From positions 84,816,001-84,880,000 of the forward strand of contig OZ076411.1 in the NCBI GenBank assembly GCA_964187785.1: 64,000 nucleotides of DNA, given 5' to 3'. Position 1 is the stretch's first letter; the number at the start of each line of letters is the position of its first letter. The notes under the pieces are model-generated. The model was given only the letters and a program-made list of their open reading frames with translations. It had not been told where the DNA came from and did not search any database. Source of the stretch: Amphiscolops sp. MND2022. Its lineage: Eukaryota. The position numbers and the translations under genes were made by a program. Below are positions 8,071 through 59,336 of this stretch, in pieces.

Positions 8071-8383
8071 TGGAACTACATGTTTTTGAAACCGAAGGCC
8101 GTTTAGTTGCAGTAATCTTCACTTTTTTAGGCATATTGGTGATAAATTTGAAATCAAATGTAGATATATCAGCTTACGATGCCAAAAATTGATGATTGTA
8201 ATAAGGTTACAAGTTTCGTAGTGACAATGGAAATGGTCACTTTGGTTGTGAATATTCAAAATTAAATCATTGTCTGCGCTAATTGACTAGGTTATGCTGG
8301 CTAGGTTATTGACTAGGTTATACCCTCCTTCATTGTATGTGGGCAGAAAATACCAAGTTATGAACCGAGGAGTGTTTTATCAG

Positions 8384-9627: not shown

Positions 9628-10302
9628 TCAGTGATAACTATAACTGTCCTGAGATATAATTGTGTCGCGATTTTGCTCGCTTGTGTATGAATCTATTGAA
9701 CTGTCTCTAGATCTATGTCTATCGTTTTCCCGTGCAAAACACGTTTTGGGGCGATTTTCCCATGTTTTCTGCTGATTTTCAACTTCGGGGTCCTGGTGTA
9801 GTTCACTGGACCTTAGGTCCTCCATGGTGGACTTCGTCGTCCTTGGGCCTGGGTGTAGCCCGTTGGACCCTCGGTCCACTACGGTGAAATTAGGCCTCCC
9901 CTGTGTGTCTAACATATTTTGGATAGACGGAAGCACCGAGCTTGTTATTGCGGTCGTAATCGCATCCTGAATTTGCAAATTCATACTATCTTTGATTTCA
10001 TTGAACTTTCTAGACATTTGGGCCGAAATTTCATCATTTATCAACCTGGTCGTCTCAATAGTGATTTCACTATTTTCTCTACTATTAGTTAACAATGATC
10101 TAAAATCTTCACCCGTTGCATGAGAATTTCTTCCTGGCCTGCTAGACCCTGAGACTAAATTCATTTCATCGTCACTAATATTATTCTGATCAAAATTACC
10201 AGAATAGTTCCCTAACATAACATCAGCATTTTCCACATCAGACATGATGTCTAATTGTCTAGAGCGTCTTTCCTTAGCTTTCTGTTTCCTAGAAGAAGGC
10301 AT
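9628..10302 (-). CDS. gag: Truncated Gag N-terminus encoded by the A 3' LTR, reading 11 codons into the flank
   Basis: MPSSRKQKAK...EQNRD matches the gag start in the 5' LTR. The sequence diverges exactly at LTR end 9663. Expression is unknown. Confidence 0.6.
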   Translation of the reverse strand: MPSSRKQKAKERRSRQLDIMSDVENADVMLGNYSGNFDQNNISDDEMNLVSGSSRPGRNSHATGEDFRSLLTNSRENSEITIETTRLINDEISAQMSRKFNEIKDSMNLQIQDAITTAITSSVLPSIQNMLDTQGRPNFTVVDRGSNGLHPGPRTTKSTMEDLRSSELHQDPEVENQQKTWENRPKTCFARENDRHRSRDSSIDSYTSEQNRDTIISQDSYSYH

Positions 10303-11295
10303 CGAAGGAAATTTAGCTAATGTAACAGTGAATTGACTAAAGGTTTGATTTCAGAATGTGGCAAATAGAAACAACAATGTAAGTAACTGATAACTTTGCA
10401 GTGTGAGATCGAATGATTGAATCGTCCTGGTGACAGTGGGTCCCAGCTATTTATACTCCACAGGGCATGACAAGCAGAATTATGGTTGTCATGATTCTAA
10501 TAATAGCATCTAGTTAAAAATAGGGTACATGACGTCAACATTACCTCATCAATTGTAACTAAAAATAGCTTCAAGGTAATTGGGATATAGACCAATGGTC
10601 TGTAAGTATGAAATTGATCCCAGAATATGAATGGCAAAATATATAATTACATGTTCATGTTAATTTTACATATTCGAATAATACCATATTGTGCTAATCA
10701 TCCTTTAATAGCGCACAGATAGACTTAAAGTCCGATCAACTGCATCAAATTACATGTACAGCACTTCTGAATAATAATAGCCGTCGTGGACTGAGTGTCC
10801 ACGTGGCTACATCAAATATGATAGCAACGACTGATTGGCAGCTAATAACACCGCGGTAGACCTTTGGTCCACGTGGCTACTGCAATAATAATGATAAGAA
10901 TGTACAGCACTCTGATTGGTTCATTTAAATAAGGCCGGTACGTACGCCGGACGTCAACAAGCGTTCATTTGAACACGTTTCCTACTATTCAGCAAGCATT
11001 ACTTTACATTCAATTGATTATATTACAAATTCATCTAATCAATCAAACAGGCACAGAACTCATCAATTAAGTATATTCTCGTAAGGTAAAAATGAAATTT
11101 GAGGTGTAGCCGTGTGGACCACAGGTCCATCACGGTAAAAATATAAAATAGTACTATTGGGCTAAGGTTAAGCATAGTTTTGTATTGTTTTACCGTAAGT
11201 TTTTCAAATTGGCAATACTCCGGGTGGGGGGTTAGATTCTGCATTTTCTTGGGGAATTTGATAATAATTCCCGTCACAGGCGGCAGCCTGCGACA
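9663..11295 (-). repeat. Element A 3' LTR (1633 bp)
   Basis: About 99% identical to 23856-25498 (about a dozen substitutions and one 10-bp indel seen by eye). TATAAATA at 10455-10448, CRE-like TGACGTCA and CCAAT boxes. Confidence 0.97.
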
Positions 11296-12025
11296 CTCCC
11301 CTAGGGACCAAAAGTACTGTTCTTTGATTCATTCCAGCTAGGTAGGCATCTCTCCGCCTCTGTTGATCGTAATGCGTCTCGCCTCGTCTTGAAGTCAACT
11401 CAAGGTACGTCAGGACTGCAGTCTCGCGGATTTGCTCGTATGATCTGCCACACACAATACAATCTCCATAAGCTGCGGCGTTCGGTTCACCACAGTTCGC
11501 CCCCATTCGCACACTAATTCCCTGGATGTGGGAGTTTACGGGCACAGCAAAATCTGTCACATTTGGTCCAGCATAATCATAACGACCATAGCTGGGCCCT
11601 TGCTCGCACAAAGGTGGAGAAAGCGGCGTATCCACCTGAGGGACAAGTTTTGAGCATTGGTTGATTGGACAATTGTTCTCCCTGCCGATTGCGTCTGGGC
11701 CAGTTCCTAATTCGACTATTGCTGTTTCGAAATCTTCAGGCCAGAAGTCCGAAAAGTCGTCCCAAGGAAATTCGGGCAACCCGTCGTTTACACAGCTAGA
11801 GAGGTCCGTAGTCATTTTGCGTGTGGCATTCTGTTCCGTTGGGGCAATAGGCACGTGGCGATAACAGGCGATGACTTCTATGTCACTGTCGTCTGAGTGA
11901 CGTTCGGTCCCTTGCGCTGACACAGACAGAATGTCTACTTCCATATCCTCCTCTTCCTCTGAAGAGAAGTAGGCTGGGCTGACCAAAGAATTGGCCAATT
12001 CATCTATTGTGAATTGAGTTTCCAT
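11204..12025 (-). CDS. Element A accessory sense ORF (273 aa; acidic N-terminus, SIM-like motifs, CxxC)
   Basis: Open ATG ORF containing EEEEDMEVDILSV, SDDSDIEVI and CIVCGRS. It crosses the PPT and ends 92 bp inside the 3' LTR. The tail SQAAA.DG...PG.LP is conserved in the related solo LTR at 62194-62282. Confidence 0.75.
   Translation of the reverse strand: METQFTIDELANSLVSPAYFSSEEEEDMEVDILSVSAQGTERHSDDSDIEVIACYRHVPIAPTEQNATRKMTTDLSSCVNDGLPEFPWDDFSDFWPEDFETAIVELGTGPDAIGRENNCPINQCSKLVPQVDTPLSPPLCEQGPSYGRYDYAGPNVTDFAVPVNSHIQGISVRMGANCGEPNAAAYGDCIVCGRSYEQIRETAVLTYLELTSRRGETHYDQQRRRDAYLAGMNQRTVLLVPRGVSQAAACDGNYYQIPQENAESNPPPGVLPI
11296..11303 (-). other. Element A polypurine tract
   Basis: TAGGGGAG lies immediately before the 3' LTR TGTCGC on the minus strand. 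It is short. Confidence 0.6.
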
Positions 12026-13209
12026 CTGAGATTTATATTTTCTAAGAAAGATCTTCTTGGCAATTTTGAGGTTTGCTAGTAATCGACTGGTTTGGCTTTT
12101 GAAACTTGACAGAATGATTTTCTTCTAGTTATTCGGACTAGTGGTTTCACCCTTTTCGCGGGAATCCCCAGCGGGAAAACCGTTTTCATCTTTCCTAAAT
12201 TCTTGCCAAACATTCCATATTTGTAATTTTACAGAATTTCTAGAAGTAATAACTAAGGTAAATTTCATGTTAATTGGCCCTTGATGTGCTTGTAAGTTGT
12301 TTACTCAAACACTTAACGGCAGTTAGTAAGTGAGTTAAGTGCTAACTCAAGTAAACTGTCAGTAAATAAATCCACCATCAAAGACCTTCGGTCCGCTCGG
12401 CTACATCAATTAAATTAGCCAATCAGGTCCTGATGATAAATGAATAATGAAAATTGATGGAAAATGAATAAAATGGCGATTTTCTAATCTAATACTAATC
12501 TAAACGATGAAATACTTTCTAAAATGAAATAAAACATGAATATCACTGGCAGGGTCAATCCATGCTGGTAGAGATTAAGGTTGAATAAAGGTACTAAAGG
12601 GACATGATATTAAAGCTACGTAATGGTAGATGAAAGAATAAGTAGGCCACGACGTCCTTGTAAGATGTAAAGTAATTGACCGTCTCTAATTGTTAACGCT
12701 TTGTGTGGATTAGTCATTAGTCTTGTAGAGTCGGGAGGTACAAATAACAGTAAAATATAGTAATTCATTTTCTGTGTCTGTGCTCCCGCATTTCTCTTTC
12801 AACATTCGAATTGTTACATTATTCCATTGAGCATTGAAATTCTCCAACGAATAGTACGGACTATAAGTCTCAACAGCCACAGAAACAACAATTTTCATCA
12901 ACTCCAAACGGCTGACAGGTTGATTCATCACTTCGTGGAAAAAGGAAAATCCCCTTCTCGTCCAAGCAAGGAAAAGGCAAATCTTCGTCCTCTTGTCCAG
13001 CTAGTCCTTCATAACAGCATTTGCCGCTAAAATTCCGTCTTCCGTCGTGGAAATAACGTCAGGTTGGTTCTTTTGAATTTTGTCAAAACTAAACTTGATC
13101 AGGGCTTAGGTTCGACTATTAGTACTTCCTCCATCATGAAATAATTTCACTTAGGCGTGAACAAACTAAATTTCGAACTTGCTTCCGGAAGTCTTTCAAA
13201 AGCGGTAAG
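12026..13209. promoter_or_regulatory. Putative internal bidirectional promoter of element A
   Basis: AT-rich non-coding gap between two divergent ORFs. AGCCAATCAG at about 12418 and a copy of the element-A palindrome at 12382-12394. Confidence 0.5.
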
Positions 13210-16200
13210 ATGGATAATTTTGCAGGAAGTGAACCGCGTGAGTTTATTCCTTTCCATTTAAGTAAAGGACCAAACGGCCAACCACGACAAGCTATGTCAG
13301 AAGGTAACCAGACTGAAGACCTACATATCAATCCTTCTCCAGATGCGGCCGAACAGACCACTAGTCCTGGTGTGTCAGAAAATTTGCTATCAACTGCACC
13401 AGAATCTCGACCTGCTTCTCCGCCTCTGCTTCCTAGTGCAATCGAGATTGTGGAAGGCACTCCTTCTCAGAGTTCGACCGAAGCAGATTGTAGTGAGAGA
13501 GCAAATTCCGCAAATGCTGTCAATGAAGCCTCTGCGTCTCACGTTTCTCAGTCTCCAGATTATTCTCCGTCAATGATTAACTTGCTTGCATCAGATAATA
13601 GTAGCTCAGCGGAAAGTCTCCAAACATACTTTGGCCGGAAGGTGTCAATTATGGAAGCAACCGGGACTGAAAGTCCAGTTGGCCTCAACCTGCCCGTTCC
13701 ACCAAAAGAGAGTGTTAGTGAGCCCATTACTATCACCCCAGTTCGACCCGGTACAACTGCTGAGGGCCATGAGGTCCCAACGCCAGCTGGAGAAACCACT
13801 GCAAGTGCCCCTGCTTCATTGGAAGACGAGGCAGGACCAGAGAGTGAGAGCAGGGCCAGCAAGAGGCCCAGAATAGGAAGCGTCACCGCCTCCCTTCATC
13901 CTCCAATAACCGAATTCCGGACCATTTTGTCCTCCTCACAGAAAGAGCCATCAGTGCAATCGTCTGATGAAATGGAGCAGGAAGTAACCCCAGCACATGT
14001 GGTGTTAAGCAGTTCTGAATTTGCGGCAGACACTGACCATGACTCTACTACCAATCCCGCCGGGTCGACTATTGGTCAAGCTCTAAGCGCCAGGGCTAAA
14101 ACTCACGTTCCGAGGTCTGATGATGCTGATAGTGCCTTCTTTCCAGTAGGATTGCCCAGTACATCCCGTAGCAGCTCATTGGGGCCTAGTAGTCGAGCAC
14201 TCATCAAAGAATTCTTTGATAACTCAGAAAGATTCGACTTTCCGAAAGGCCATCCTACAGTTGCCTTCACTGAGGATCAGATCAGTTCTGTCCTCAAGGT
14301 TGTTGCTGACGAGACTGTCCGGGTTTCCCTTGATGCCATAGAGAAACTCATCCAAAAGGCGAGCCAGCTGAGAATTGGGCCTGAAGAAACTCTAGAGGAA
14401 ACTCCTAGCAGATCGGGGAGACGGTGCCCAAGAAGAGCGGGAAGTGCGACATCAGGTCTGCAGAGCGACACGAGTGGTGGCATCCGTAGCGATGACGATT
14501 TTTCTAGCATCGGTTACTCTTACGAGCATTTGGACGCCCCTAGCATTAATGCTCCTCCTTGCACTAGCAGTGAAATTCCTTGTGGCTCGCGGGACCTCCG
14601 TCCAACATGGGTGTTCCTGTAGCTGACAGCCCCGAGACTCAAACTTTTACTGCGCTGAAGGCTGAAGCTCTTGGTGACCTCAGTAAGCGTCCCCGCAGTA
14701 AACGCGGAAAGTTTGTCCCTGCTACCCGTGGAGCCGGCACCAGACGTAAGATCACTCGTTCATGCAAAATAATGAAAGAGGCATATTTCCAGGGTATGGA
14801 ATGGAACTGAACCTTCGTCTCTGGCCCCATGGACCCAAGGTGGAACCCTTATAAATTCTACTGCCAAATTTGCAAGGCAAACGTTTCGATTTATGGGAAG
14901 GGAGCTAGAGAAATTTTACGTCATCACTCTCGAGAAACCCATCTCCGTAAAGACCAACGTTGGAGATACGAATATTTATATTCTGTCGATCCAGTCAAAA
15001 GAGTGAAAGTCCACCAGGTACGTGGAAAAGATGGGAAATTGCTGACCCCATACCAATTAGAGTTCGAGCTTCCTCTCTTTATTAATGCACCACTTGTTGA
15101 GATCGGACAGAAACTCCCGTTTTACGACGAGTATATGGCTGGCACAGACTATATGTCCTCTAGTTCAAGTAACCGTGCTCGAGTACAGCTCTCAGTCTTG
15201 GCAAAGTTTCTCCCTTCCAGCGGCGACATCGAGGTCCTAAAGTCCTTCTGGAGCGATGTGGGCGTGATAGTGAACCATCAGTCCTTGTTCACTGATTTCA
15301 ATTGGGGAAAGGAGCGACTAAGTGTAAGTTTTAAATTTTTGATAGAGGAGTCATTTAACGTAGGCGTCATGATCTTAGGGTCCCAGATACCCATAAACTC
15401 TGGTGTGTTTTGTTTTAGTTGTTATTCCATCACATGTTCATCGAACTCATGTCTGACATTGCTACCCATGTCAATCTCAACCGTGAGTACGCTGTGGAAT
15501 TTGCCGTCGACGGGGTCTTCCTCCTCATCTTCATCAGATTCTGGAGGGTCGATGAATTATGCAGAGTCTTCATCAAACGTACTAGCCGTCTTCAGGGCCT
15601 AACCAGCGCCGAGATGTGTCTCCTTTCGTACTTGATGGGTACGTTGTCGACAACCCCCAAATTGATTTGTGCTACTGGTTGCAGTGCCCGAACGGTCCAA
15701 CTCCTCGACCATAGTCCTTATGCTAGCTTTAGTATCCAAAGTCCACCTCGATTTGAGGAGCTCAATCTGCCCAATCTCATGCACAAGAAGTGTAGCAGTG
15801 TCTTTGGCAAGATAGACTTCTTTTCTGTCTTGAGATATTTGATCATCTCACTGGGAGGATGCCTCGAACTTGATTGGGTTCTACTATCGCCAGAGTTGTC
15901 AAAGGTACGTGTCGTCCTTTTAGCTAGACCACATTGTACATATCAGTTTCGTAATTATACAGTTTGTGTCCCTGACCTTCTTGAGTTTTGATTTTGTTTC
16001 CTCCTGATAGGCTATCCGCACAGGCCAACTTGACATCTGTGGACTTCCAGCACTTTGCCAGGAACTCATGGACAATTGGGTCAAAGTCATTGCCTTCCTT
16101 AGTAAGCACGCCCCCACACAAGAAAACCAAGGAGTTCGAAAGCAGGTAAATCATTAAGCGCTTGGTCTGGCCATTTGTACTCCCGGTCCTTGCTGATTTG

Positions 16201-17448
16201 AAATTTTCATTTTAGCCTCAGAATTTAGAATGGTCCATCGTGTACGATGACTTGTTCCTCAGCAAATTAGAGTTGTTCTGCCGTCTGATTCGGGATTGTT
16301 AGTTGCTTTCTTCATGGTTTATCTTGGATTCCGACAGTAGGTCTTTAAGGTTCTTGTCTCCTATTTTAGATACTGCCAGTTTCTCTCTGAACTTGAAGAC
16401 TAGAAGGGACAGAGGATTCCACGTATACAAGGAACTCTGCCAATTTCTTTTTAAGCTTGGGCGACGGTGTGTAAAACCCAGCAGTCTTCCGGCCGAGAAC
16501 GATTTCCAGGCAGTCCTCCAACTTTCTTTCCCTGATGCTAAAGCTCTGAGTGTGGAAGATTTCATCAGTCGTTCTAAACTCGGAGCAAGACTAGCTGCTG
16601 GCTCGAAATCAAAAGCAGAGAAGGAGATGAGCGAGGAGAAGAACAGGGGTTTAGCCCTTACTGACGTCGCTGCTTCCATTCGAGAAGAATTTGGCCGCCT
16701 AGCCCGAGGGTACGTAGCCAATCTGCTGAACGCCACACAATCCCTCACTCGCTTTACCTCTGACATCGTCAGGGGTTTAGGCTCTTTCGACCTTGAGATC
16801 TTGTTGCTAGATCCAATTGAACAGGCTACTTACTGCTTCAAACAGCTTTTCATGAGCTTCAGGCTACGTGGGGTTTTTCGAGCTGACGAGGAGACGGTGT
16901 ATCTGGAAGAATATCTTTCTTTCATCGACGAATTGCGCCGTGCACACCCCGAAGTCCAACAGCCCAAGCTCTTGATTAATGACGCCATAGATTTCATTTC
17001 TCGCCAGGGCCTTTTGAAGTCAAGACAACACCTGAGTCGTATTTTCCGGCTTAGTTGCCTTTGCCTCGATGAGCCACGTTTTACCTTCCCTGCAGTACGA
17101 TTTGGATCAGTGCGGACAGATGAGCCCACTTGCAGCATGTTTGATATCGTCGCACCAATTCAGTCTTATTTTGGGAGTGTTGCTCGAGGACTGGACAATC
17201 TTGTCTGCGAGGCGTCAATTGAGCGCTTACTGAATTTGGAATTGACCTTTGGTACTACCGGCCTCAGCAGTACTTACAGTCCTTGGGATGGAATAGACCA
17301 CTTTGGCCGAGATCGTATACGAGATGCCATCCATACTCAAACGCCAGAGCGACGCAGAGTCACAATTGCCACTGAAGTTTCTTCCGATCAGCCGGGAAGT
17401 AGTAGAGGTACGAAGTCGTCAAGTCCAAAGAAGTCTGTTAAGTTCTAA
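13210..17448 (+). pseudogene. Element A antisense spliced accessory gene: zinc finger plus hAT-transposase-like protein, damaged copy
   Basis: Predicted exons 13210?-15323, 15419-15904, 16011-16145, 16216-16297, 16370-17448. Introns are GT-AG, 72-106 bp, and phase-compatible. The first exon has a frameshift near 14590 and an in-frame TGA at 14808-14810. Contains CQIC-X16-H-X5-H and is colinear with 48695-52570. Confidence 0.8.
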
Positions 17449-17627
17449 TTGTACAAATTGTACAATTGTATGGTAAACATCTTGTTGTGTAAACTTCTGC
17501 TGTTCTTTCTAGTTTCATTTTGTTATTTATTTCTTTCATTGTATTGTTGATATATCAGTCAGCCAAGTCCCGAAAAGATACTTGTATTATTATTCATTAG
17601 AAGAGGGACCGTAATTCAATTGTCTGG

Positions 17628-20600
17628 CTAGTATCTGTATTCATCAGTGAAGTTGGGGGTGGGGTTAGGACGAAGGTTATATTTTCCTCCCCTAGGGCTT
17701 TCATTGTTTACAATCACATCATTATTTTCATCATCTAATACTTCGGGCACGATAGTATCGCTCCCTCCTGATGATTTTTGATCATCGATCTGTTCATTTG
17801 AGCGATCTGAGCATGTTGTTTCAGTCCGGTCTGAATTGCCACTTTGGTGTGGCCCGGTGGACCCAAGGTCCGCGTCGGTGAAATTTACGTCGGGTGGCTC
17901 CGCGCCCTCATTAGGGTGAGGCCCGGTGGACCTAAGGTCCTCGTCGGTGAAAATTTCGTCTGGCGACCTGTCATTACTCACAGGGCTATTGGAAGTATTT
18001 TTGTGGTCTAAATTTGTAGGAATCATAGTTTTTTCTGCGGAATTAGGAAATTCTCCAAAATCGGTTTCCCACGTAATTACATATAGGTCATCTTGCGGAA
18101 TGATAATTTCATCATCCGGCTGTAAATTGCCTTCCGGTCTAATGTCTTGTAGGACAGTATTTGGTTCATATTTGCGTAATCTAATCCTGTGAAAAATTTG
18201 CGTTTTGTTGGAATTGAGTTTTCTGACTATATAATTTTCATTCGGTAAGACCTGTTCTACGACATATGGTCCCGTCCATCTATATTCTCGAAACGGTATT
18301 TTTGATCCTTGGTGGTCAGCTATAGGCTGTAGTATGAAACAATAGTCGTTTTGCTTTAATGGAGCTGCTTTGGCCTTTCGGTCATAATATTCTTTATATT
18401 TCAAGTAGGATTGTATGATGTTTTTCTTCGTTGAGTCGAGTAAAATTTACGTACGTCGCTGAAATTCATCTGCAAAATCTGTAGTCGGAAGGACCTTCGG
18501 GTTCGGATTAAGGCCCAATTTATGATCCAGAATATTATAGGGAATGCGTCCATGAAAAATTCTGGACGGTTCACAGCCCAGGGTGGCGTGATAAGTCGTG
18601 TTGTAGTTTAAAACAGCTAGAGGCAGATATTTATGCCATTGTCGCCTGTAGTCCCCTGAGGCCATTTTCAAATTGGTTTTGAGACTAGCATGTGTTCGTT
18701 CAAGTTTACCAATTGTTTGTGGGTGTTTTGTAGTAGCGCATTTTATTTGAATTCCCAAAATTTGAGCGATTTCAGCTACCAGTTTGGACGTAAAGGCCGT
18801 ACCTTTGTCTGTAATCAGAGTAGTTGGCAAGTAGGTGTGCTTGGTCATTATATCAATAATAACCTTTGCCGTATTTGTGGCCGTTGCGTCTGTAACTGGG
18901 TATGCAAAAAGATATCTTGAAAATACGTCCATTGCGGTGATGATGTTTTCGTATCCGCCACTTGGTGGTAAATTCGGTAGCAAATCAATTTGCATTGCGT
19001 CTTCTGGTCCTAAGTCCCATTCAGGCAAATTAAGGAGTTCAGGGGTAATAGATGAGTTGGGAATTCTCTTGTCTTTGATGCAGATTTCACATCCCTGAAC
19101 CCATTTTTTGACAATTTTTGCAATTCCCGGATAGTAATATTTTTGGCGAATTTCTATGAGCATCTTGGATATTCCGGGGTGTTTATTAGCTTTTCCATGT
19201 AAAGATTCGAGTAGTTCTTGGACTAGATGTTTTGGTAATAGCACTTGATTGTATTTAACAGCTCCCGTTTCATCAAAATACTGTCTGGTAATAATTTCGT
19301 CCGTAACGGACAGTCTGTCCATCTGGCGACAGTAATGTTGGTAGCGGGAATCTTGCAGAAGGATGGTTTCCGAATAACTTTCTTTCAGTATTTTGAGGCG
19401 CAGTTGTTGTAAAATGACGTCGTTATTCTGCTCTACTGCTATAGAGTTCGTATAGGATAATTTTTGGAACGTTGAAAGTTTGTGGTAGTCACTTTTGTGT
19501 GTAGAAAATTTTTCGAACGAAATGTCTGGTAATTGATTGGTTGGGTGAGACCTAGCGTCTTTTTTGCGCTGTAAAATTTGTTCTTCCGTCTCGTCATCAT
19601 CCTCGGTATAAAAGATTTGTTCCTCTTCCGAAACTCCGGCCGATTGGACATGGAGTTCGATCGGTGTTGTGGGAATATCTTCTCTGATTCTGAGGATTAA
19701 TTTCTCTTTCGGAGAGATTTCTAGACGTGACAGGTAGTCTGCCGCTGTGTTATTTTTTCCTGGGATATGTGCTATTGTGAAGTTGAACTGGATCACATAA
19801 TCACAGGCATTCCATAATGTTGGTGGAATGATTTTCGTCTGAAAAAAGCGTGTAACGGATTTGTTGTCTGTAAGTATGATTACCGGTTTAGGGGTTCCCC
19901 AAAAGATATGTCCAAATTCCTTGAATGCAAAGAAAATTGCTAAGAATTCCTTGGCATAGATGGACATTTTCAATTGGGTAGGACTAAAGGTCTTGGATCC
20001 ATAAGCTACTGGTGCGAAAGCTTTCCTCGTGGAGGTGTACTTCTCGAGTGGATCGTCTTCGATGAGAACTGCGTACCCCGCGGCCGAAAAGCTGGCATCA
20101 GTCTTGAGGGCTATTTGCTTGTTCGATAAGGGTTGTTTGAGTGCCAGTTCGCAACATCGATCAAGAGCCTTGTTTATCTCGGTAAATTTTTCCAATAGGT
20201 CCGGTGTTACCAGGACTTTTTCATCCTTGGTGAGCAGTTTGAAAAACGGTGTTAGTTTTTCTGATAGTCTTGGAATGTAGTTCCGATAGTAATTCAAAAA
20301 GCCCAAGTAACGCTGTAGTGCTTTCTTGGATTTCGGGAATTTCGTATTTTCTAGGAAATTTTGGACCCGAGGTCTCTGCGGCTTCACTCCGGCAGGAGTG
20401 ATGGTACGTCCTAGAAAGTCGATTTCCGTTGCTCCAAAATGGCATTTGTGCATGGTAAGTTTGAGACCAGCTTGTTGTATGCATTGGAATGTGGCCCTCA
20501 AGTTGTTGATGAGTTGTTCAGCGTCGTTGGCAGCGATGCCAATATCATCAACATATTGGGCGCATTGGTCTGCTTTAATGACCTTGTCTAAATATTCTCG

Positions 20601-22730
20601 CATAAAGCTGGAGAAGGCCGATAGGGCTCTACTGAGTCCTTGTGCCAACCTTCTGTACGCGAATGTTCTACTGGCAAAGTTGAAGGCAAGCATTTCGATG
20701 GACCTTTGGTCCGCCATTTGTAGGCAATGGTAAGCTTGCGAACAGTCCAACTTACAGAATAGCTTTTTCCCAGCCATGTGTTGGGCTGCATCAGTAAGCG
20801 TACTTACTGGGTGGTTATTGTTGATGTAATCATCCGATATCAAGTTATTTATTTTACGTAAGTCGACTAAAAGTCGCAATTTGCCATTGGGTTTCTTTTG
20901 TGCAAAAATGGGACTTGCGTATTTGGAAAAAGGGAGTGTTGTAATGATGCCATAGCGATGTAGGAGAGCTAACTCTACAAGTATATCTTCCTTGAGGTTT
21001 ATTGGCGTTGGCAAACTCTGACTATAGGCCGGGGAATCATCTTTCGGTGTCAGTTTGACCTTGAAGTCCTCGTTCATGCCTATGTCGAAGCGATGCCTAG
21101 CAAAGATATCATGAAACTCGACAAGTAAGTCCTCTATACGAGCTATTTCGGTAGGTTGGAGCATAGAGTCTGTCCAGTCAAAGTTGGATAAGAATTGTCG
21201 TCTGGACTCAGGGTCATCCTGAGGATTGAGTTTCTCTAATTCCTGAAGGTTGATAAGTTCGGAGAAAATCCTTTTCTGGATTGGCGTGTGGTGCTGAGGG
21301 TCCCCCGGGTCTTCCGGTGTTGCAAACCAGTAGTTTTCCTTGAGGTCCTCAGGTTTCGTAGATTTGATCAAGCTACTTGCATAATGAGCAGCGTTTTCAG
21401 GGTTATCTTGTAGGAGGTGCCATGTGGTCACCGGGTCATTGGGCTTTACGTATTTCATCTGTTCTGGCGTGAGGACAGTGAAATTAGCCACCTGTGTACC
21501 TCTCTTGAGGGTGTACGGACTATCGGTAAAATTGTTGAAATGAAGCGATACCTGACCATTGGTCAGCGTGACTAGAGCAGCGCAGAAGGCAATATCGCCG
21601 TCATCTGTAAGATTGTTGTTCGGTTGGAGGATCCCAGTAACTGTAGTGTTCTCGTACAGTTGTGAAGCCATAAGGACCGATTGTCTGCCATTAGGGGGAA
21701 TGGTTGCATCCTCTCTAATGCAGATGGGTTCCATAACGTTAGTATACTTTTGATCAGCAGTTTTCAACTGCATTGAAAAGAAAGGAAAATTCAGGACACC
21801 TTGTCTCATGTCCAAGATGGTATTGTTCCTTTGGAGGAACGAAAGACCGATCAACGGGCTGGTGAGTTATTCCATAACGATGAATATTTCGTGAAATTCT
21901 ATGTCGCCGACTTCAAACTTCAGTTCGACTGTGCTCTTAGGAGTCTCCAGCTGTCCATTAGCAACCATAATTTGGAAGCCAGGAGCCGGGCCCTCTTTGA
22001 CAATTGACTGAGGGGCTAGTAATCGGATTTTACGTAGATCAGCTTCTGGGATTGCGCTAGATAGGGCTCCCGTGTCTACAAGGCCATCTAATGTTAGTTC
22101 GCCAAAATCCATCGGAAAATAGAGCATTCGTCTCTTGTATTTGAGGCCAAGATTAGTTGTCAGCGGTACATAGTCTGGTTCACCTGTTCTTGTGATTAGG
22201 GTGTTCACAAAACGGGCAGCAACTGTTGTGGCCAGTGAGACCGGTGGTCCCGCACGGTGAAATTCAGCGTCGGGCTCAGCCTGAGTGACTTGAGATCTCT
22301 GTGGTATGTCATGTTGCCATGGATCGACCTTGGCCTTTGCAAGAACCATATTCAAGGCTCGATCAATTTCATAGGAATCTGGTTCTCTGATGTGATTTGG
22401 TTTGTGGAAATTACGGTAGAAGTATAGATGATGTTGATTGTAGCAATTAGCGTCCCAATAGGGATCAAAACCATAGTCCGGGTCCGGGTAATTTGGGTTA
22501 TAGTCATCCACAAGGGGTATGAGACGTATAGTCGAAGTATCATTTTGTAGTCTGTTGGACATAGGGTCCCGATTGGTAGAAAAGTTGGGTGGAGTCTTCA
22601 TCTGCTGCTGCCAGTCAGCTGATGATGTTTCTTTACGAGCAGTATAATATTCAGTGTAGTATATATTTGAAGGGTCAGATATTATATATTGTCTGACACG
22701 GAGTTTTTCATTTATTTGGAGTCGTGGCAA
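17628..22730 (-). pseudogene. pol: Element A pol (PR, dUTPase-like segment, RT, RNase H, IN)
   Basis: LVDTGA protease, YVDD, TDAS, H..H/CEIC, integrase core (QIDLL, MDVFSRY, TDKGT, KLERTH) and WTGPY. One reading frame interrupted by TAA at 21867-21869 and 18447-18449. Confidence 0.95.
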
Positions 22731-22731
22731 C

Positions 22732-22741
22732 CTAGTTTTTT
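22732..22741 (-). other. Candidate -1 ribosomal frameshift site at the end of gag (A_AAA_AAC followed by TAG)
   Basis: gag ends CCA AAA AAC TAG. The heptamer fits X_XXY_YYZ. This copy also needs a 1-nt loss just downstream to reach the pol frame. Confidence 0.6.
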
Positions 22742-23843
22742 GGATTTTTCAAAATGGAAGTGGTTTGTTTGTTGTTGGCGTCGTTGTGACTTGTGGACGC
22801 CTCATCAGTTTTAGAATCCTCGAGTTTGAGATTCTTAGGCTTGAGATGGGCTCCCGCGCCTTTCCAACACCGTTCCGCCGGGTGATTTGTTTTGTCGCAC
22901 GTTGGACATTTGGGATACTCTTTCTTAGTATCCTGTCCGTCGTTGCGTCGTTGTTCCTCCTTTCGTTTGAGTTTCCGGCAGTCATCTTTGACGTGGCCGG
23001 GTTTTTTTCAATAGTTGCAAGTGACGTTTGGGTCAATACCCGATGAAAGAAGGCCAGTTCCCGGTCGTGTTGCTGTCGGGGCAGTTGACATTGTTGGGAC
23101 TGGAATGTCGTCACCCTCCTCAAGTCCATTTAATTCTAATTCAAATTCCAAATGAGTGACGATTTCCTCATAAGTGGCATTCTCTAGTCTAGCCATGTTG
23201 ACTGAGCGTTTCAGTTTTGGCGGCAACTTGGCATATAGGAGACTATCAATCATGGCCTGGGCGTGCTCGCCAAACGCTTTTTCAGCTTCTTGATTTAGTT
23301 CTTCAAGGAAGTCGGGCAGTTTCATGGTATTTGGGTCAAACACCAATTTGTGCCATTTGTGTTTGGCGGTCGCCTGGGGCTCAGGTTTGACATATTTCCT
23401 TCGAAATACTGCCAGGATGTCCTCCAAGGTTTGCCTGTTTGCCGTGTTGATATTACGGAAAGTTTGAAGGGCATTCTTTCGTAACAGCGAATGAAAATGG
23501 TTTATTTTCATAGTTTCAGTCATATCAGGCTGCATTTTTATCATTGTGTGGAACAAATCCTCGAAAAGTTCAAATTTCTCGGATTTGCCATCAAACGTCA
23601 GTGTGGTCGTACTGACTGGGCGTACCATCAGTGTCTGAGCTGAAGGTCGACTGTGTATACCGGCTATTGCCTCTGCAAGACGGTTTATGGGGTCTGAAGG
23701 AGTATTTTGGCTTGGAGTTTCCTGGACATGTGGGCCTTGGTCCGGAGACTCATGCAGATTGGAATGTTGATGTTGCAGGGGAGTACGGGGCTGCATGGGC
23801 CGTCCAGTGAGAAACTCAGGAACCATAGGGGGGGTAAGTTTGG

Positions 23844-23855
23844 CTCCTGTCACCA
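23844..23855 (-). other. Element A primer-binding site TGGTGACAGGAG
   Basis: Directly abuts the 5' LTR end. The same 12-mer occurs in element C. tRNA identity not established (resembles Leu-type PBSs). Confidence 0.8.
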
Positions 23856-25498
23856 TGTCGCGATTTTGCTCGCTTGTGTATGAATCTATTGAACTGTCTC
23901 TAGATCTATGTCTATCGTTTTCCCGTGCAAAACACGTTTTGGGGCGATTTTCCCATGTTTTCTGCTGATTTTCAACTTCGGGGTCCTGGTGTAGCTCACT
24001 GGACCTTAGGTCCACCATGGTGGACTTCGTCGTCCTTGGGCCTGGGTGTAGCCCGTTGGACCCTCGGTCCACTACGGTGAAATTAGGCCTCCCCTGTGTG
24101 TCTAACATATTTTGGGTAGACGGAAGCACCGAGCTTGTTATTGCGGTCGTAATCGCATCCTGAATTTGCAAATTCATACTATCTTTGATTTCATTGAACT
24201 TTCTAGACATTTGGGCCGAAATTTCATCATTTATCAACCTGGTCGTCTCAATAGTGATTTCACTATTTTCTCTACTATTAGTTATCAATGATCTAAAATC
24301 TTCACCCGTTGCATGAGAATTTCTTCCTGGCCTGCTAGACCCTGAGACCCTGAGACCCTAAATTCATTTCATCGTCACTAATATTATTCTGATCAATATT
24401 ACCAGAATAGTTCCCTAACATAACATCAGCATTTTCCACATCAGACATGATGTCTAATTGTCTAGAGCGTCTTTCCTTAGCTTTCTGTTTCCTAGTAGAA
24501 GGCATCGAAGGAAATTTAGCTAATGTAACAGTGAATTGACTAAAGGTTTGATTTCAGAATGTGGCAAATAGAAACAACAATGTAAGTAACTGATAACTTT
24601 GCAGTGTGAGATCGAATGATTGAATCGTCCTGGTGACAGTGGGTCCCAGCTATTTATACTCCACAGGGCATGACAAGCAGAATTATGGTTGTCATGATTC
24701 TAATAATAGCATCTAGTTAAAAATAGGCTACATGACGTCAACATTACCTCATCAATTGTAACTAAAAATAGCTTCAAGGTAATTGGGATATAGACCAATG
24801 GTCTGTAAGTATGAAATTGATCCCAGAATATGAATGGCAAAATATATAATTACATGTTCATGTTAATTTTACATATTCGAATAATACCATATTGTGCTAA
24901 TCATCCTTTAATAGCGCACAGATAGACTTAAAGTCCGATCAACTGCATCAAATTACATGTACAGCACTTCTGAATAATAATAGCCGTCGTGGACTGAGTG
25001 TCCACGTGGCTACATCAAATATGATAGCAACGACTGATTGGCAGCTAATAACACCGCGGTAGACCTTCGGTCCACGTGGCTACAGCAATAATAATGATAA
25101 GAATGTACAGCACTCTGATTGGTTCATTTAAATAAGGCCGGTACGTACGCCGGACGTCAACAAGCGTTCATTTGAACACGTTTCCTACTATTCAGCAAGC
25201 ATTACTTTACATTCAATTGATTATATTAAAAATTCATCTAATCAATCAAACAGGCACAGAACTCATCAATTAAGTATATTCTCGTGAGGTAAAAATGAAA
25301 TTTGAGGTGTAGCCGTGTGGACCACAGGTCCATCACGGTAAAAATATAAAATAGTACTATTGGGCTAAGGTTAAGCATAGTTTTGTATTGTTTTACCGTA
25401 AGTTTTTCAAATTGGCAATACTCCGGGTGGGGGGTTGGATTCTGCATTTTCTTGGGGAATTTGATAATAATTCCCGTCACAGGCGGCAGCCTGCGACA
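23856..25498 (-). repeat. Element A 5' LTR (1643 bp)
   Basis: Direct repeat of 9663-11295. TATAAATA at 24658-24651. Contains the gag ATG. Confidence 0.97.
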
Positions 25499-45366: not shown

Positions 45367-45748
45367 TGTTACGACTGTTTATCGGGGTGGTTTTAGAAGC
45401 AGTCGCAGTAGTTTTATTTCTGATCGGTGTTGAGGTCACGTTTTCCGGAATGTTGTCGGGATCAGAATCAGACTCTTCTGCTGATCTTATTGCAGGTTGT
45501 TTTTTAGCGGTTGGGTCAATTAGTTTTAGCATTTCCTTCTGGTTTTCAGCTAAGATTTTAGTAAGATCAGACATTATTTCCTTTCTCAGTGATAATTTTA
45601 TTTCCTCTAAGTTATCCGCAGAGACTTTAGGAGATTTGCTTGTACCAGCTACAGGATTTACACTCGAAGTGTTTTCAGGTAGAGAAGTTTCTATTTCAGT
45701 TGAAATAAGCTCTTCAGCTGCTTTTCTCTTTTGACTTCTAGTGGTCAT
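45236..45748 (-). CDS. gag: Truncated Gag N-terminus from the C 3' LTR, fused in frame to the host solo-LTR Gag fragment
   Basis: MTTRSQKRK...INSRN comes from the LTR up to 45367 and continues TDIESIDIMLGG... Expression is unknown. Confidence 0.5.
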   Translation of the reverse strand: MTTRSQKRKAAEELISTEIETSLPENTSSVNPVAGTSKSPKVSADNLEEIKLSLRKEIMSDLTKILAENQKEMLKLIDPTAKKQPAIRSAEESDSDPDNIPENVTSTPIRNKTTATASKTTPINSRNTDIESIDIMLGGNGLDREESISSNLGRRPESPSYGILLNQNGQ

Positions 45749-47507
45749 TTTCAGAGTTCAAGAACAAGGTCTTCGGAAATATTTAAATTCGTCGAAGAGA
45801 TTGAGTTTTCGTTGTTATAACGGAACAAAGTTATTAGCAGTAGAACAAAAGATTGATTAAAACTTACAACAATTTTCTACATATATATACCTTCCAAGCA
45901 TCATTTGTTCCTCACCTAAAAATTCCTAGGAATCCCTAAAATCCGTTTTGTCCACTAAAAATGCTTAATCATCCATATCATTTCAGCCCTTTAATTAATT
46001 GTTCACATTTTTAAATTCCTAGTTACGATTCCCTTGCGGAGTACTTGTTGAAATCATTTTTGTTCAACACTCCCATTTCCGGTTTCATCACGGAAAAGGC
46101 GGCAAAAAAATGCCTAGTTTGAATTTCTATCGCAAAAGGCACGCTGACGTGAATAATGATTCACTCTCTGTCTAGCGAAGAACATCCGTTCGCAACAAAA
46201 GTATGACAAGCAAAAATGGTTACGGAAACATCGCGGATGAATTTTAGACTAAAGTGTTAAACATTTCAGAAAGAAACAAATGATGCTGGAGAGTAATTAG
46301 CACATATCGGGGATTGGGTTATTGTAACAAAACACAACTTCAGGTTGTAATTTACATGCAACAATTGGGCTAAATACTCTGACTGTAATTTACATGCATC
46401 GATTGGTTTAAATAATATAACAAACATAATTCATCACAAACTACAACAAACATAAAATACCGTTTCAACAACGGAGAGCACCTGTTTCACATATTTTCTT
46501 CTGTCCTGATCTGCAACACGAATGTTCTAGTTGATCACGAAACGGGACAAATCCGGATGGAAAAAGTGAAAACTTGTAATGTTTTGAATGTTTTAGTGTG
46601 ATTCTACATGTTCTCAGGAATGTCCTGATGTATTAGAATATTCTCTAAGTCTTAGAATTTTCCACGGTTGTTTTACATGTATTAACATTAGGTATAGCTT
46701 CATCTATTACAATTTGCTCCGTAAACGCACCGTAAATGCTCCCTATGTATTGAGGTTGGCTATAACTTTCTCGGTTTATAATTCGCTCCGTAAGCGCTCC
46801 GTACGTATTAAGATTGAGTATAGCTTTCTTAGCTGCTAGCGGAGCAAGCTCGGAGTAAATTCGCCATCTTTAAATTCATTCTTAGTGACGTCATCGGAAT
46901 GGTTTCTTACTAGCGTGAGCGCAAATATACCGGTCTTAGCAGCGACGCTATTGGTCCGTAAAAATAGAAATACCTGTTACTCGTTTATCTGAGTGACGCT
47001 GTCATAGCGTTGTAAAAGTTTGCTCAGATTACTTGACTGTAATTTGAGAGGCTTTCTTACAACTACTTCAGATTCCAAATTGAATCTGCTATACTATTTT
47101 GATGTTCTTTTCATTTTAGATCGTATGAGTTCCGTTGGGATCGCGGAATTAAATAATTGTTTTAGTGTTTTCATTTCAGTGTGGAAAGGAGAAAAATGAT
47201 CCCAGTGTTATGAATGTCTTTCTTTCTTAATATTTAGATTGACATGGAATTTTCAGCCGTTGAAACCGGAAGTATCAAAAATGTCTACGTGTGAAAACTT
47301 TAAACCGGAAATCTTATTTTGCTTAAAGTCATTTTGGATATTTCACGTAGTGCTTCCGTAGATTTTAATTCGTGCTGCAGTCTAGACGAAAAGGTAAGTT
47401 ATTGTACAATACTTAACATTGCGTGGCTCTTCCGTGGCCTCTCCCCCTTGCGAATTTTGGGATTCCTCCACAACAGGAAAAATCCCGACCGCGAGCGGGT
47501 CGTGACA
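45367..47507 (-). repeat. Element C 3' LTR (2141 bp)
   Basis: About 99% identical to 58955-61096. A TATATATA element near 45880 lies about 130 nt upstream of the gag ATG. GCTCCGTA cluster at 46716-46860. Confidence 0.97.
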
Positions 47508-48141
47508 GGGCGCCTCTATAGCCTATTGACACGGGACGGGGGCAGTGCGGAATCTCTCTTGTGATGAGCACAGGCTGCTTGCGAGCTCTTGTCAGCTTTG
47601 TGGAGGTGAAACGGGCCCCACGTCCGCATAGTGAGTTGAACTCTGAGCTGCTCTGCAAACCGATGCCATAGACATTCTCTATATCTTCCATAGTAGGCTC
47701 CGTTAGATCGTCAAGCCGATCAATTTTTGTAGGCGGCTCGTTGAGCGAAAGTTCTCCGTTGGTCATATCCCGTAAGACTGGGGCAGGCTGTAATGGGGGC
47801 AGTTGACGGGGGGTATCCGGCTCTTCAAAGTAGCTTTCTTCAGACGTTTCAGTACTATGCCCTTCCACTATGAAAGCTTCGCCAGGGCTTGTAGTGTCGA
47901 AGTTTATTTTCCTTGGTGAACCGATAGTCTCAAATGTAGACGCTGAGATGCCGGATAGATTTAGACTATTGATGGAGTCCATCATCTTTTCTGCGCTGCC
48001 TTTTGTAGCTTCTAAGGAGGCTTCAGAGAGGCTCAGAACTGTGATCCCATTTAGTGGGAGGGTTTTGATGGGTGTGCTCTGCCTGACTTCGTTTTCTTCT
48101 TCATCAGAAGTGATGTCAATTACGAGTTCATAATTGCTCAT
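47413..48141 (-). CDS. Element C accessory sense ORF (242 aa; N-terminal SIM-like VIDITSDEEE, RG-rich tail)
   Basis: Open ATG ORF in the same position as A's 11204-12025. Ends 95 bp inside the 3' LTR. The tail reads ARGR...ARGRGHGR. Confidence 0.72.
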   Translation of the reverse strand: MSNYELVIDITSDEEENEVRQSTPIKTLPLNGITVLSLSEASLEATKGSAEKMMDSINSLNLSGISASTFETIGSPRKINFDTTSPGEAFIVEGHSTETSEESYFEEPDTPRQLPPLQPAPVLRDMTNGELSLNEPPTKIDRLDDLTEPTMEDIENVYGIGLQSSSEFNSLCGRGARFTSTKLTRARKQPVLITREIPHCPRPVSIGYRGALSRPARGRDFSCCGGIPKFARGRGHGRATQC

Positions 48142-48694
48142 TTTTGAATTTTGAAGATTTCAGCTAACTTAACTTCACGTTTGGGATGCGGCAAATGAAA
48201 AGGTCAACTTCCTTTTCGTTCGTAATTTCCCTGCATTCCTATTGGCTGTTATTTTTCTTTTATTCCGGTTCGTTTTTCTTCGGAAACGTTTCGTTTCCCT
48301 CTGCGCTGTGATTGGCTGAACCGTTATAAATAAAGTTTCTAATTTTGAACTTTATCATGGTGTCGTGAATTCTTTTCCGAGAGCGATCCGTGTGACGTCA
48401 TTAATTAGGAAAATAATCTTTTTCTTTTTAGGGCATTTGAGAGGTCAAATTTAATCTTTGGATTTTCTTTCTTTTTGGAAGCGATATACTTCCGTCAATG
48501 GTATGTTAGGCTGGATTACAAATGTGATGATCTATTTCTTTTCCGTGATAACATTCATTTGACGTGATTCTTTTGTGCAATGTTTTGAGCCGTGTGGACA
48601 TTTTCCTCATTCCCTGTCTCCGGGGCGTTTCCGTTGTTTTCTTCTATATCATTTTTTTTCTTTTTTAGATTGTTCTTGAAGATTTCAATGATTC
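48142..48694. promoter_or_regulatory. Putative internal bidirectional promoter of element C
   Basis: Gap between divergent ATGs. ATTGG (CCAAT) boxes at about 48241 and 48311, and TGACGTCA at about 48394. Confidence 0.5.
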
Positions 48695-51600: not shown

Positions 51601-52570
51601 CAAATTTCGAACTCGATGTAAGGAGTTCATTGATCGTCTTGCTGTCCTGATTGTGGAGAGTGCCAGTGCCCAGTCTGTGGTGTCAAAGGGTTTATACAGT
51701 TTTTGTCCGGAGCTGATGTTAGAAGGTGACAATAACTCTGCATTCGAGCTGTTTTCCGAGCTGTGTCAGGTATTGGAGCGATGTAAGGCCGTTGTTAGTG
51801 ATGAAGCCAAAGCTGCGCAAGACGAGTACAAAGCATATGTTATTGAGAAGAGGAGGCAGCATTGTCGTTTGGAGCGGTCTGCTAGTGAGATCCCGGATGT
51901 GTGCCGTTATTTGCTCAACGATTTTGCTTTCCGGTCACGGTGTCATTTGCTGCGTATCTTTAAATTGTGCTGCCTGGTTGTGGGAGAACCTCATCGCGAC
52001 TACCCTTCGTTTACCATGGACTTGACTGGTTGTGGGCTCAAGAAGACAAGTGTGCTGCTGTGCTTCAGAATTATGCAGAGTTATATTCTGAGTGCTGACT
52101 ATTGTCATAAGTCTTTGTTTACGGAAAGTACTCTGGCTGTTCTTCGTTCTGCTATCACTAATGCTGGGTCTTTCTTCGTTGGGACAGAATTTGACGTGTG
52201 GGCTGACTTGAGTGGCCCTGGTGTGGATACTTTCCTCGATTCCTTTTGCCGTTTGTACGACCAGTTTGTAGAAACACGGCGACGAGCTAGTGGGGAGTAT
52301 TATTCGGAGTGCAACCGGATCAATCGTTTGGCACGTGCGGAGCAAGTTTCGCGATCTAGTTCCGAGGCACGGAGTACGAGTAGTTCCGTTGGAAAAAAGA
52401 AAGGTGACGTTAGCAAGACTGCGAGTGTGAAACGGCAATCATCGTCAGTTGTTGAGGGCGCATGTTCGTCGAAGGGGGCAGCTCCAAGATCATCGAAATC
52501 GAAAAAGAAGAATCAAGTTGTTGATAAAGACCCTGATGTCTTTCACAAGTTGAAGGTTTCGAAGAAATGA
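48695..52570 (+). CDS. Element C antisense spliced accessory gene, 1058 aa: disordered N-terminus, CX2CX16HX5H finger, hAT-transposase-like body lacking DDE
   Basis: Exons 48695-48818, 48931-49386, 49497-49619, 49730-50298, 50415-51014, 51135-51216, 51348-52570 total 3177 nt. Six GT-AG introns of 110-131 bp, all phase-compatible, with no internal stop. NLS-like PKRKKRAR. The 5' exons are less certain than the 3' exons. Confidence 0.85.
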
Positions 52571-52719
52571 CTTATGGATTTTGATATTTTGAGTTTATAT
52601 TTTGTTGTGATTTTTCTGTTGATGTATTGTTGGGGTACGTATAGTATCCGTGTAGTTTAGAACATTTCAAAAATTGACGTAGCCATCCCGGTTTGGCTTG
52701 GCCTGTCGAGTGTTTTCAT

Positions 52720-58700: not shown

Positions 58701-59336
58701 AGGATACATTTTGATATTGTTTCGGAAAAAGTCTTCGAAAAGTTCGAATTTTTCTGACTTACCATCGAACACGGGAAGTGAAGCTGTGAGTGCTTTCGGC
58801 ATTGGGAGTAGGTTTGTCGATGGGAATGTCTGCGGTTGTGGTGCGAACAGGATTTTTGATGTAGTTGGACGTTCTTTCGATTGGTCGTTAGGTGCGCGGT
58901 GTTTGGGCCTTTTGGTGGGTTGGTTTGTAGAGTCATTGAGGACTCCTGTCACCATGTTACGACTGTTTATCGGGGTGGTTTTAGAAGCAGTCGCAGTAGT
59001 TTTATTTCTGATCGGTGTTGAGGTCACGTTTTCCGGAATGTTGTCGAAATCAGAATCAGACTCTTCTGCTGATCTTATTGCAGGTTGTTTTTTAGCGGTT
59101 GGGTCAATTAGTTTTAACATTTCCTTCTGGTTTTCAGCTAAGATTTTAGTAAGATCAGACATTATTTCCTATCTCAGTGATAATTTTATTTCCTCTAAGT
59201 TATCCGCAGAGACTTTAGGAGATTTGCTTGTACCAGCTACAGGATTTACACTCGAAGTGTTTTCAGGTAGAGAAGTTTCTATTTCAGTTGAAATAAGCTC
59301 TTCAGCTGCTTTTCTCTTTTGACTTCTAGTGGTCAT
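52720..59336 (-). pseudogene. Element C gag-pol
   Basis: ATG at 59336 in the 5' LTR and TAG at 59169-59171. CFHCGKYGHYKAQC and CDTCGKLHKTENC knuckles, LVDSGA, YVDD, TDAS, integrase core and WTGPY. Frameshift near 55575 and TGG>TGA at 53680-53682. Confidence 0.95.
58943..58954 (-). other. Element C primer-binding site TGGTGACAGGAG
   Basis: Abuts the 5' LTR end. Identical to the element A PBS and translated as MVTG within gag. Confidence 0.8.

Follow-up and report, generated by a model that had tools for sequence, protein, structure and literature searches.

A short palindrome repeated throughout a single transposable element raises the question of what keeps it there. The element (element A) is a Ty3/gypsy long terminal repeat (LTR) retrotransposon of Amphiscolops sp. 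MND2022. It lies in a stretch of 64,000 nucleotides, called the window here (assembly GCA_964187785.1, contig OZ076411.1, positions 84,816,001 to 84,880,000). The sequence-only reading of this stretch had suggested that the 13-bp palindrome RGACC-N3-GGTCY was a target for an accessory protein of the element itself. The palindrome was found to belong to a set of dispersed sites that differ from clade to clade among related elements, with support for a constraint acting on the DNA, and the predicted binder is an antisense zinc-finger protein encoded by the elements.

Perfect copies (GGACC-N3-GGTCC) were present at 9808, 9865, 11116, 17859, 17928 and 20700, and in the 5' LTR at 24001, 24058 and 25319, while variants of the AGACC/GGTCT type were present at 10858, 12382 and 20363. 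All sites reported before were recovered, and two further R/Y variants (10589 and 22238) had been missed. Every perfect copy (9/9) and all 16 R/Y palindromes of the window were inside element A. GACC-Nk-GGTC was found 17 times at k = 3 and 0–2 times at each other k from 0 to 11. Markov simulations of element A (300 each at order 2 and order 4) gave 0.013–0.037 perfect and 0.06–0.07 R/Y copies, whereas the real element without its second LTR had 6 and 11. The previous estimate of fewer than 0.01 perfect copies was thus slightly low, but the excess itself held.

The 13-bp palindrome is the strong end of a commoner core, GAC-N5-GTC. Counted over the interior and a single LTR, this core had 37 copies where 3.7 were expected, and other spacers gave 0–11. 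GYC-N5-GAC peaked at the same spacer of 5 (43 copies vs. 6–17 at the others), which indicated that the site consists of three G-N-C triplets 8 bp apart. The oriented strong site was TGTRGYC-N5-GAC-N5-GTC with an asymmetric flank, often followed by YGGTG 5–6 bases downstream, and leave-one-out flank scores were above background in 8 of 9 seed sites. The GGCTAC extension described earlier does exist, but it reads an upstream GTAGCC block from the opposite strand (exact at 4 of 11 sites, with one mismatch at most at 7 of 11), and the site is therefore not symmetric. Scored sites were divided 18 vs. 14 between the strands, with a median core-to-core gap of 320 bp, and 17 of the 37 cores were inside gag-pol, dispersed and in both orientations. 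The strong sites and the coding sites were as follows.

9808..9877, plus strand: two strong LTR sites (9808 and 9865), 57 bp apart.
10788..11128: three strong LTR sites, at 10788 (minus), 10858 (minus) and 11116 (plus).
12382..12394, minus strand: strong site between the divergent small open reading frame (ORF) and the accessory gene.
17859..17940, plus strand: two strong pol-tail sites (17859 and 17928), part of a 49-bp local duplication.
19309 (minus), 20364 (minus), 21554 (minus), 21675 (plus), 22239 (plus) and 22558 (plus): coding sites with flank, their positions kept across subfamilies.
20700..20712, no strand: perfect palindrome without flank, in the conserved reverse transcriptase (RT) peptide QMADQRS.

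Because the flank is missing at 20700 and the RT peptide encoded there is conserved, protein constraint may partly account for this site.

Seventy-one related elements were sampled (50 of the A superclade, 11 of clade C and 10 of clade D), of which 61 were chosen via the accessory protein and one was element C of the window. Enrichment was called at a Poisson p < 1e-4, and false AAA dyads from loci with N runs were disregarded. One motif class per clade was shown: GAC-N5-GTC (35 of 50 elements) or GCC-N6-GGC (10 of 50) in the A superclade, CG-N9-CG in clade C, where all 11 elements were enriched for ACG-N9-CGG, and GGCC-N8-GGCC in clade D (8 of 10). No cross-enrichment for the motif of another clade was detected among the 71 elements. 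Among A elements picked by protein alone, 35 of 40 passed and the other five had p ≤ 3e-3. The minimal core of clade C occurred in 93–140 copies compared with 27–31 at other spacings, in 11 of 11 elements. In element C itself, CG-N9-CG had 125 copies against a median of 31, and ACG-N9-CGG was its strong form. The gypsy-type controls without a detected accessory gene (element B of the window and two other stretches) showed no comparable dyad peak. The motif had been described as absent from elements B and C, and the motif of A is indeed in neither, but C holds a different one and B holds none. Element C comprised the following features.

45367..61096, minus strand: element C, same layout as element A, with an accessory protein ~25% identical to that of A.
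49552..52570, plus strand: accessory gene of element C, with the finger exon followed by further exons.

The core of clade C places two CpGs one helical turn apart, at about four times the number of other spacings (element C and loci L051-L062 and L095-L102). This arrangement could make binding methylation-sensitive, if any methylation exists.

The constraint on the motif was supported as one on the DNA, even within gag-pol, because synonymous shuffles removed the motif while keeping the protein, and because the sites used three frames and both strands. This supported what the sequence-only reading had proposed. The pol of element A contained 14 cores vs. 1.9 in synonymous-codon shuffles, and 0 of 500 shuffles reached the observed number. 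Across the A superclade, 11 of 17 elements were at 0/100 shuffles and three more at 1–2/100. The pol of clade C exceeded its shuffles for its own motif (13 vs. 3.1 and 16 vs. 3.1), as did CG-N9-CG in that clade (34 vs. 13 and 30 vs. 11), and neither the A nor the C pol was enriched for the other's motif. The D-x-[RG]-S peptide noted before in Gag and Pol does occur, but it corresponds to one of the three frames used, which held 10, 6 and 3 of 19 coding cores. In nine A-type elements, four-fold sites within cores were invariant in 7 of 9 cases compared with 99 of 465 outside (p = 0.003), and the same analysis with control patterns gave 0 of 10. Among the matches listed, homologous pol sites kept their position while the flank followed the subfamily (TGTCGCC, TGCCGTC, TGCAGTC or CTACGTC), and these flank changes were partly synonymous.

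In the whole genome, 5,413 perfect GGACC-N3-GGTCC were counted, against 238 of the reversed pattern and 551 with a 4-base spacer. Fifty genomic sites, those in the first 15 Mb of contig C1, were examined, and 44 were in related elements: 27 formed nine clusters, all of which were related elements with the accessory gene, and 17, in 14 of 20 further loci, aligned to sampled elements. Of the last six, a relic of another clade held one and related 1.8-kb repeats held two, one was near short LTR-like matches, and two were unexplained. No recognisable host context was found at any of the 50 examined sites. The genome-wide enrichment proposed earlier as a check was therefore seen, but as the mark of the whole group and not of family A alone. 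The 1.8-kb repeats (L174-L175 and L178-L179) carried seven GAC-N5-GTC cores each with symmetric flanks and are probably solo LTRs of an unsampled family. An old element at L185-L186 combined a clade D-like accessory gene with about nine GAC-N5-GTC cores, and may mark the ancestral motif or a further clade.

Element A is a Ty3/gypsy LTR retrotransposon by its LTR ends, its target duplication and the order of its pol domains (RT, RNase H, integrase; Pfam RVT_1, RT_RNaseH, Integrase_H2C2 and rve). Its two LTRs, of 1,633 and 1,643 bp, were 98.7% identical. The layout was as follows.

9663..25498, minus strand: element A, 15.8 kb, with TG...CA ends and a 5-bp target duplication (AATTG).
9663..11295, minus strand: 3' LTR, 1,633 bp, with 9 GAC-N5-GTC cores inside.
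11204..12061, minus strand: small sense ORF ahead of the 3' LTR, confined to the A superclade and carrying a conserved CxxC...ACDG domain at its C-terminus; a rival candidate binder.
13210..15323, plus strand: accessory gene exon 1, encoding an S/T/P/E-rich long N-terminus, a basic stretch, a CCHH zinc finger (~14850-14940) and then helices.
15419..15904, plus strand: accessory gene exon 2 (predicted), with GT-AG sites conserved across families.
16011-16145 and 16216-16297, plus strand: two short predicted exons of the accessory gene.
16370..17448, plus strand: last predicted exon of the accessory gene, encoding a helical domain whose fold weakly matches residues 371-577 of the Hermes transposase.
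17628..23855, minus strand: gag-pro-pol (RT, RNase H, integrase), broken by stops in this copy, with 17 GAC-N5-GTC cores in three frames.
23856..25498, minus strand: 5' LTR, 1,643 bp, with the LTR sites repeated at 24001, 24058, 24792, 25061 and 25319.

The gag frame opened within the LTR, so that ~240 codons of the gag N-terminus were present in both LTRs (9663-10350 and 23856-24357), and a gag start inside the LTR was also found in clades C and D. The small sense ORF (11204-12061) recombined separately from the accessory gene, and clades C and D had unrelated ORFs in its place.

The accessory gene was located antisense between pol and the 3' LTR, with conserved exons, diverged introns and GT-AG sites placed alike across families. 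The copy in element A was broken (the exon 1 frame between ~14.6 and 14.8 kb), whereas that frame was open in other copies (826 codons) and long open frames were found in many of them. The accessory protein comprises a long N-terminus rich in S/T/P/E, a basic stretch, a C-x2-C...H-x5-H finger common to clades A, C and D, and ~700 further residues. In clade D the gene was intronless and open (781–923 codons), and its product was colinear with the exons of A at an HHalign probability >99. At loci L188-L207 of this clade the GGCC-N8-GGCC motif was mostly non-coding, and the intronless ORF there is the best natural substrate for structure work. The residues before the first finger histidine were GAREI(L/I/V)RH in nearly all A, GxGEFxRH in C and G(P/A)RGIWRH in D. 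The helix at this position, nearly invariant in each clade and different between clades, is presumed to be the recognition helix, because the equivalent helix reads bases in the BED domain of Hermes.

First-look searches of the genome gave ~7,000–7,800 candidates with clade A and C queries and 2,259 with clade D, which are not copy numbers. The accessory exons had nonsynonymous divergence (dN) of 0.07–0.36 and synonymous divergence (dS) of 1.7 or saturated, while the pol dS of the same pairs was 0.06–1.1. This combination indicated purifying selection together with swapping of the gene between backbones. One comparison (L025-L026 vs. L023-L024) had a pol dS of 0.06 and an accessory dS of ~3, the accessory modules having been swapped between backbones. 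A young element at L011-L012 (LTRs 97–99.7% identical) had lost most of the accessory gene and kept 25 cores, and it is a candidate dependent copy. Neither the accessory exons nor the intronless form scored above the cut-off for any Pfam family, and PF04195 was not matched; for the finger, C2H2 matches were sub-threshold only and zf-BED gave none. No named homologue was found: the best 120 of 175 matches, 37 of 37 and ten looked-up matches were unnamed ENA proteins, and none of the 764 cluster representatives matching at E ≤ 0.001 carried a name.

How these parts might work together can be outlined from sequence. The antisense finger protein would bind the dispersed sites and keep the integrated copy transcriptionally active. 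It may act as an oligomer in which each finger reads a half-site of 2–4 bp at a fixed spacing, as hAT BED fingers do; the half-sites would be G-N-C triplets in A (three, spaced by 8 bp), CG pairs in C (spaced by 11 bp) and GGCC pairs in D (spaced by 12 bp). The whole provirus might be coated, with the disordered long N-terminus recruiting host activators, and chromatin might be held open against histone-based silencing. The protein could also act in trans on copies with a broken accessory gene, such as element A. The sites were gained and kept at a coding cost, which argued that binding benefits the element, since a host repressor would drive their loss. We consider it likely that the motif sites are bound by the antisense zinc-finger protein of the elements, and we lean slightly towards binding that activates the elements or protects them from silencing.

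The accessory protein is slightly more likely than not to descend from a hAT transposase whose catalytic acids were lost, a view that depends on one weak fold match. A model of the last exon (predicted local distance difference test, pLDDT, 67.5) aligned with Hermes residues 371-577 in VIA over 147 residues (root-mean-square deviation 4.8, Z 4.5). The order finger, helices, three strands, helix, strand, tryptophan helix and helical insertion, judged by eye, presumably resembles the hAT topology. With positions taken from that assumed topology, no acidic residue common to the three clades was seen by eye at the strand ends expected for a catalytic D/D/E. Foldseek returned nothing at E ≤ 0.001 for either accessory model, the best VIA hit of the finger exon was a small helical bundle (Z 4.9), sequence searches of PDB with four accessory profiles gave nothing significant, and the ESM Atlas had no usable match for two accessory exons. 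A DUF4371 search matched nothing anywhere in the genome and was uninformative. A dimer prediction for residues 20-515 of the clade D protein scored 0.00 with its own fold uncertain, and is evidence neither way. A capture scenario follows from such an origin, which we regard as possible but doubtful: a gypsy lineage would have captured and disarmed a DNA-transposon transposase as a lineage-specific self-recognition protein, whose target code was then written through the elements of each clade, including the synonymous codons of gag-pol, as a private lock-and-key against host silencing in thousands of copies.

Several observations weigh against binding by the accessory protein, against its activating role or against its hAT descent. 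The conservation at synonymous positions, which had been proposed as a check and was clear in the nine A-type elements, was only borderline once the A set was widened (p = 0.054), as it was in C (p = 0.06). The D motif was weak in coding DNA, where 0 of 100 shuffles reached it in just 1 of 10 elements. The motif patterns were taken from the same elements in which they were counted, and for this reason their reciprocal absence is the safer result; the controls without an accessory gene were just three. In FastTree trees of 53 elements (two were dropped for short matches), the motif labels required 8 changes with the RT tree, which is the minimum, and 9 with that of the accessory last exon. Motif class fitted the RT tree as well as the accessory tree, and therefore phylogeny does not single out the accessory protein. 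The idea that the motif is the target of the element's own accessory protein gained from the finding that motifs differ between sister clades whose accessory proteins have diverged, but it lost from this equal fit and from the motif being clade-wide.

Nor did the recombinants single out the accessory protein. A family at L079 and L153-L158 carried an accessory module 92% identical to that of a GAC-type family on a GCC-N6-GGC backbone, and showed no clear motif conversion. The reverse recombinant was mixed, its backbone having lost two GAC sites and gained one or two GCC sites. The GAC and GCC types have the same finger helix, which softens this objection and does not remove it. Linkage predicts unconverted recombinants whichever protein binds, and action in trans would relax selection. 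Locus L089 paired an A-type motif with a divergent accessory gene. On ancestry, the Hermes match was at rank 14 and below the VIA noise level, though it was the longest alignment among 50 rows, and HMMER and HHalign comparisons with host hAT ORFs were not significant, with shallow template profiles (at first 11 ORFs of ≥250 aa, drawn from 30 loci and including two that are not hAT, then six ORFs plus six database proteins). A silencing to be countered was not evident from the CpG signature either. The observed/expected CpG ratio was 0.82–1.05 in the elements and 1.00 in the flanks, without depletion, and CpG transitions between LTR pairs were raised just 1.3-fold (0.0133 vs. 0.0103). Together these values made demethylation of CpGs in the style of VANC unlikely, and they speak indirectly against that form of the anti-silencing analogy drawn earlier.

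Other explanations must account for the same sites. Host DNA-binding proteins, either transcription factors or an insulator protein, might be recruited by the sites while the accessory gene does something else. The Su(Hw) insulator protein acts at the gypsy element of Drosophila. The motif class stayed with the backbone in recombinants and fitted the RT tree, and the LTR was dense in sites (9 cores in 1.6 kb), all of which would suit a host factor. However, four branch-confined two-part motifs would need several independently adopted host factors, the flanks drifted by subfamily, and the genomic sites were in these elements (44 of 50) and never in a recognisable host context, so we think this unlikely. 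Agreement of motif class with the RT tree would equally suit another protein of the element, namely the product of the small sense ORF, or integrase or Gag acting on complementary DNA (cDNA). The cysteine domain of the small ORF was conserved across the A superclade, and unrelated ORFs replaced it in C and D. This lack of homology between clades cuts the other way too, since dispersed dyads were present in all of them and the finger protein is the single extra gene common to the three; no integrase is known to recognise sites dispersed inside an element. Binding by such a protein is considered rather improbable. The accessory protein could instead bind as a repressor, for copy-number control or as a coat of the pre-integration cDNA. 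This rests on the same binding evidence as activation, the even spacing along the element (median gap 320 bp) suits coating, and there was no methylation signature to counter. We give it a slim chance, for a gain of sites at coding cost is more easily explained by a benefit to expression, and known transposase-derived regulators activate their cognate copies in the available text of one preprint (bioRxiv 10.64898/2026.08.24.746577).

Two further explanations do without a binding protein. GGACC-N3-GGTCC is able to fold, and the palindromes might be RNA hairpins or DNA cruciforms with roles in packaging, export or reverse transcription. Bases next to the core were complementary above chance (0.43 vs. 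0.31 and 0.41 vs. 0.31), non-majority letters included, which counts for folding, though this excess may stem from pooled subfamilies. The spacer was fixed (5,413 at N3 vs. 551 at N4), most cores had a stem of only 3 bp, core letters were not swapped for other pairs, the flank was asymmetric and at a fixed distance on both strands, and the commonest form in C (ACG-N9-CGG) pairs over no more than two bases. Folding as the cause is thus very improbable. A neutral pattern left by local duplications and protein constraint would explain the 17859/17928 pair, which is a 49-bp duplication, and the site at 20700 in its conserved peptide. The motif was lost in protein-preserving synonymous shuffles, and it occurred in unrelated contexts, three frames and both strands. 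The neutral explanation is largely refuted, and its probability is negligible. Binding by the elements' own finger protein remains the reading that we prefer.

Other repeats of the window stood apart from this system. Element B (37541-43540) was a 6-kb gypsy-type element with identical 205-bp LTRs and a frameshifted pol, and had neither an accessory gene nor a dispersed motif. Probable non-autonomous DNA elements were seen at 6191-6428, 7066-8085 and 27729-32869, in the form of long palindromes, inverted repeats and a 32-bp CATG-rich tandem array.

The means by which retrotransposons actively counter silencing are largely an open question; DNA transposons of plants and complex retroviruses are established cases of self-encoded, sequence-specific regulation. 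Because this one genome combines four or more classes of motif with divergent forms of a single protein, protein-to-motif swaps are directly testable. A finger whose specificity would change by so short a helix makes these proteins interesting as a natural DNA-binding family. The regulatory code would lie over protein-coding DNA, at about one site per 320 bp in A and with an excess of ~95 CG pairs over 13.6 kb in C, and dating or selection analyses that assume neutral synonymous sites in these elements would be affected.

A comparable retrotransposon system was not found in full-text searches of the literature, with subscription journals and Repbase outside their coverage, and other accessory ORFs of LTR elements have been described, none with cognate dispersed sites in the portions available (PMC13547354, PMC5408684). 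In the plant Retand lineage of Ty3/gypsy elements, the antisense ORF TRP28 occurs throughout the lineage, placed between pol and the 3' LTR, and is predicted to be a DNA-binding regulator (PMC11963269). The accessory gene shares this place, orientation and lineage-wide presence, but its domain is another one (no PF04195 match), and the accessible text on TRP28 reports no cognate motif. The foamy virus activator Tas/Bel1 is a DNA-binding protein encoded between pol and the 3' LTR that binds the LTR and an internal promoter, according to the text available (PMC517496, PMC4929722). The predicted binder here would likewise be encoded by a retroelement at that place; unlike it, Tas is encoded on the sense strand and acts on few promoter elements, whereas the accessory gene is antisense and tens of sites extend across the element. 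The N-terminal BED finger of Hermes reads a short motif in subterminal repeats, as an oligomer with three fingers per DNA and strict phasing (PMC10368747, as far as its available text goes). A finger, a short motif at strict spacing and the weak fold match of the last exon to residues 371-577 are the likenesses to Hermes and hAT. The differences are that the sites are not subterminal, that LTRs take the place of terminal inverted repeats, and that neither a conserved D/D/E nor sequence homology was seen.

The proposed mode of action also has parallels in regulators of plant DNA transposons. Spm TnpA and the AtMu1 transposase are sequence-specific activators whose motif groups mirror element phylogeny (bioRxiv 10.64898/2026.08.24.746577), and the words "retrotransposon" and "LTR" are absent from the available text of that preprint. 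A transposase-derived, non-catalytic regulator with motif clusters in its cognate copies is predicted here as well; theirs serves its own DNA transposon, while here a probable dead transposase would serve a different element class. No sequence link of the accessory protein to VANC or TnpA was found in a Pfam-level search. VANC proteins of Arabidopsis VANDAL DNA transposons recognise family-specific short motifs, mainly in non-coding tandem repeats and in one orientation, and DNA methylation is lost, as the accessible part of that work describes (PMC5735166). The elements studied here resemble them in having an extra element-encoded protein and many family-specific short motifs, with protein and motif diverging between families. 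They differ in being LTR retrotransposons, in having two- or three-part motifs singly dispersed in both orientations and in coding DNA, and in lacking a methylation signature. If the capture scenario is true, this would be a VANC- or TnpA-like system in a retrotransposon, built across transposon classes and working without DNA methylation.

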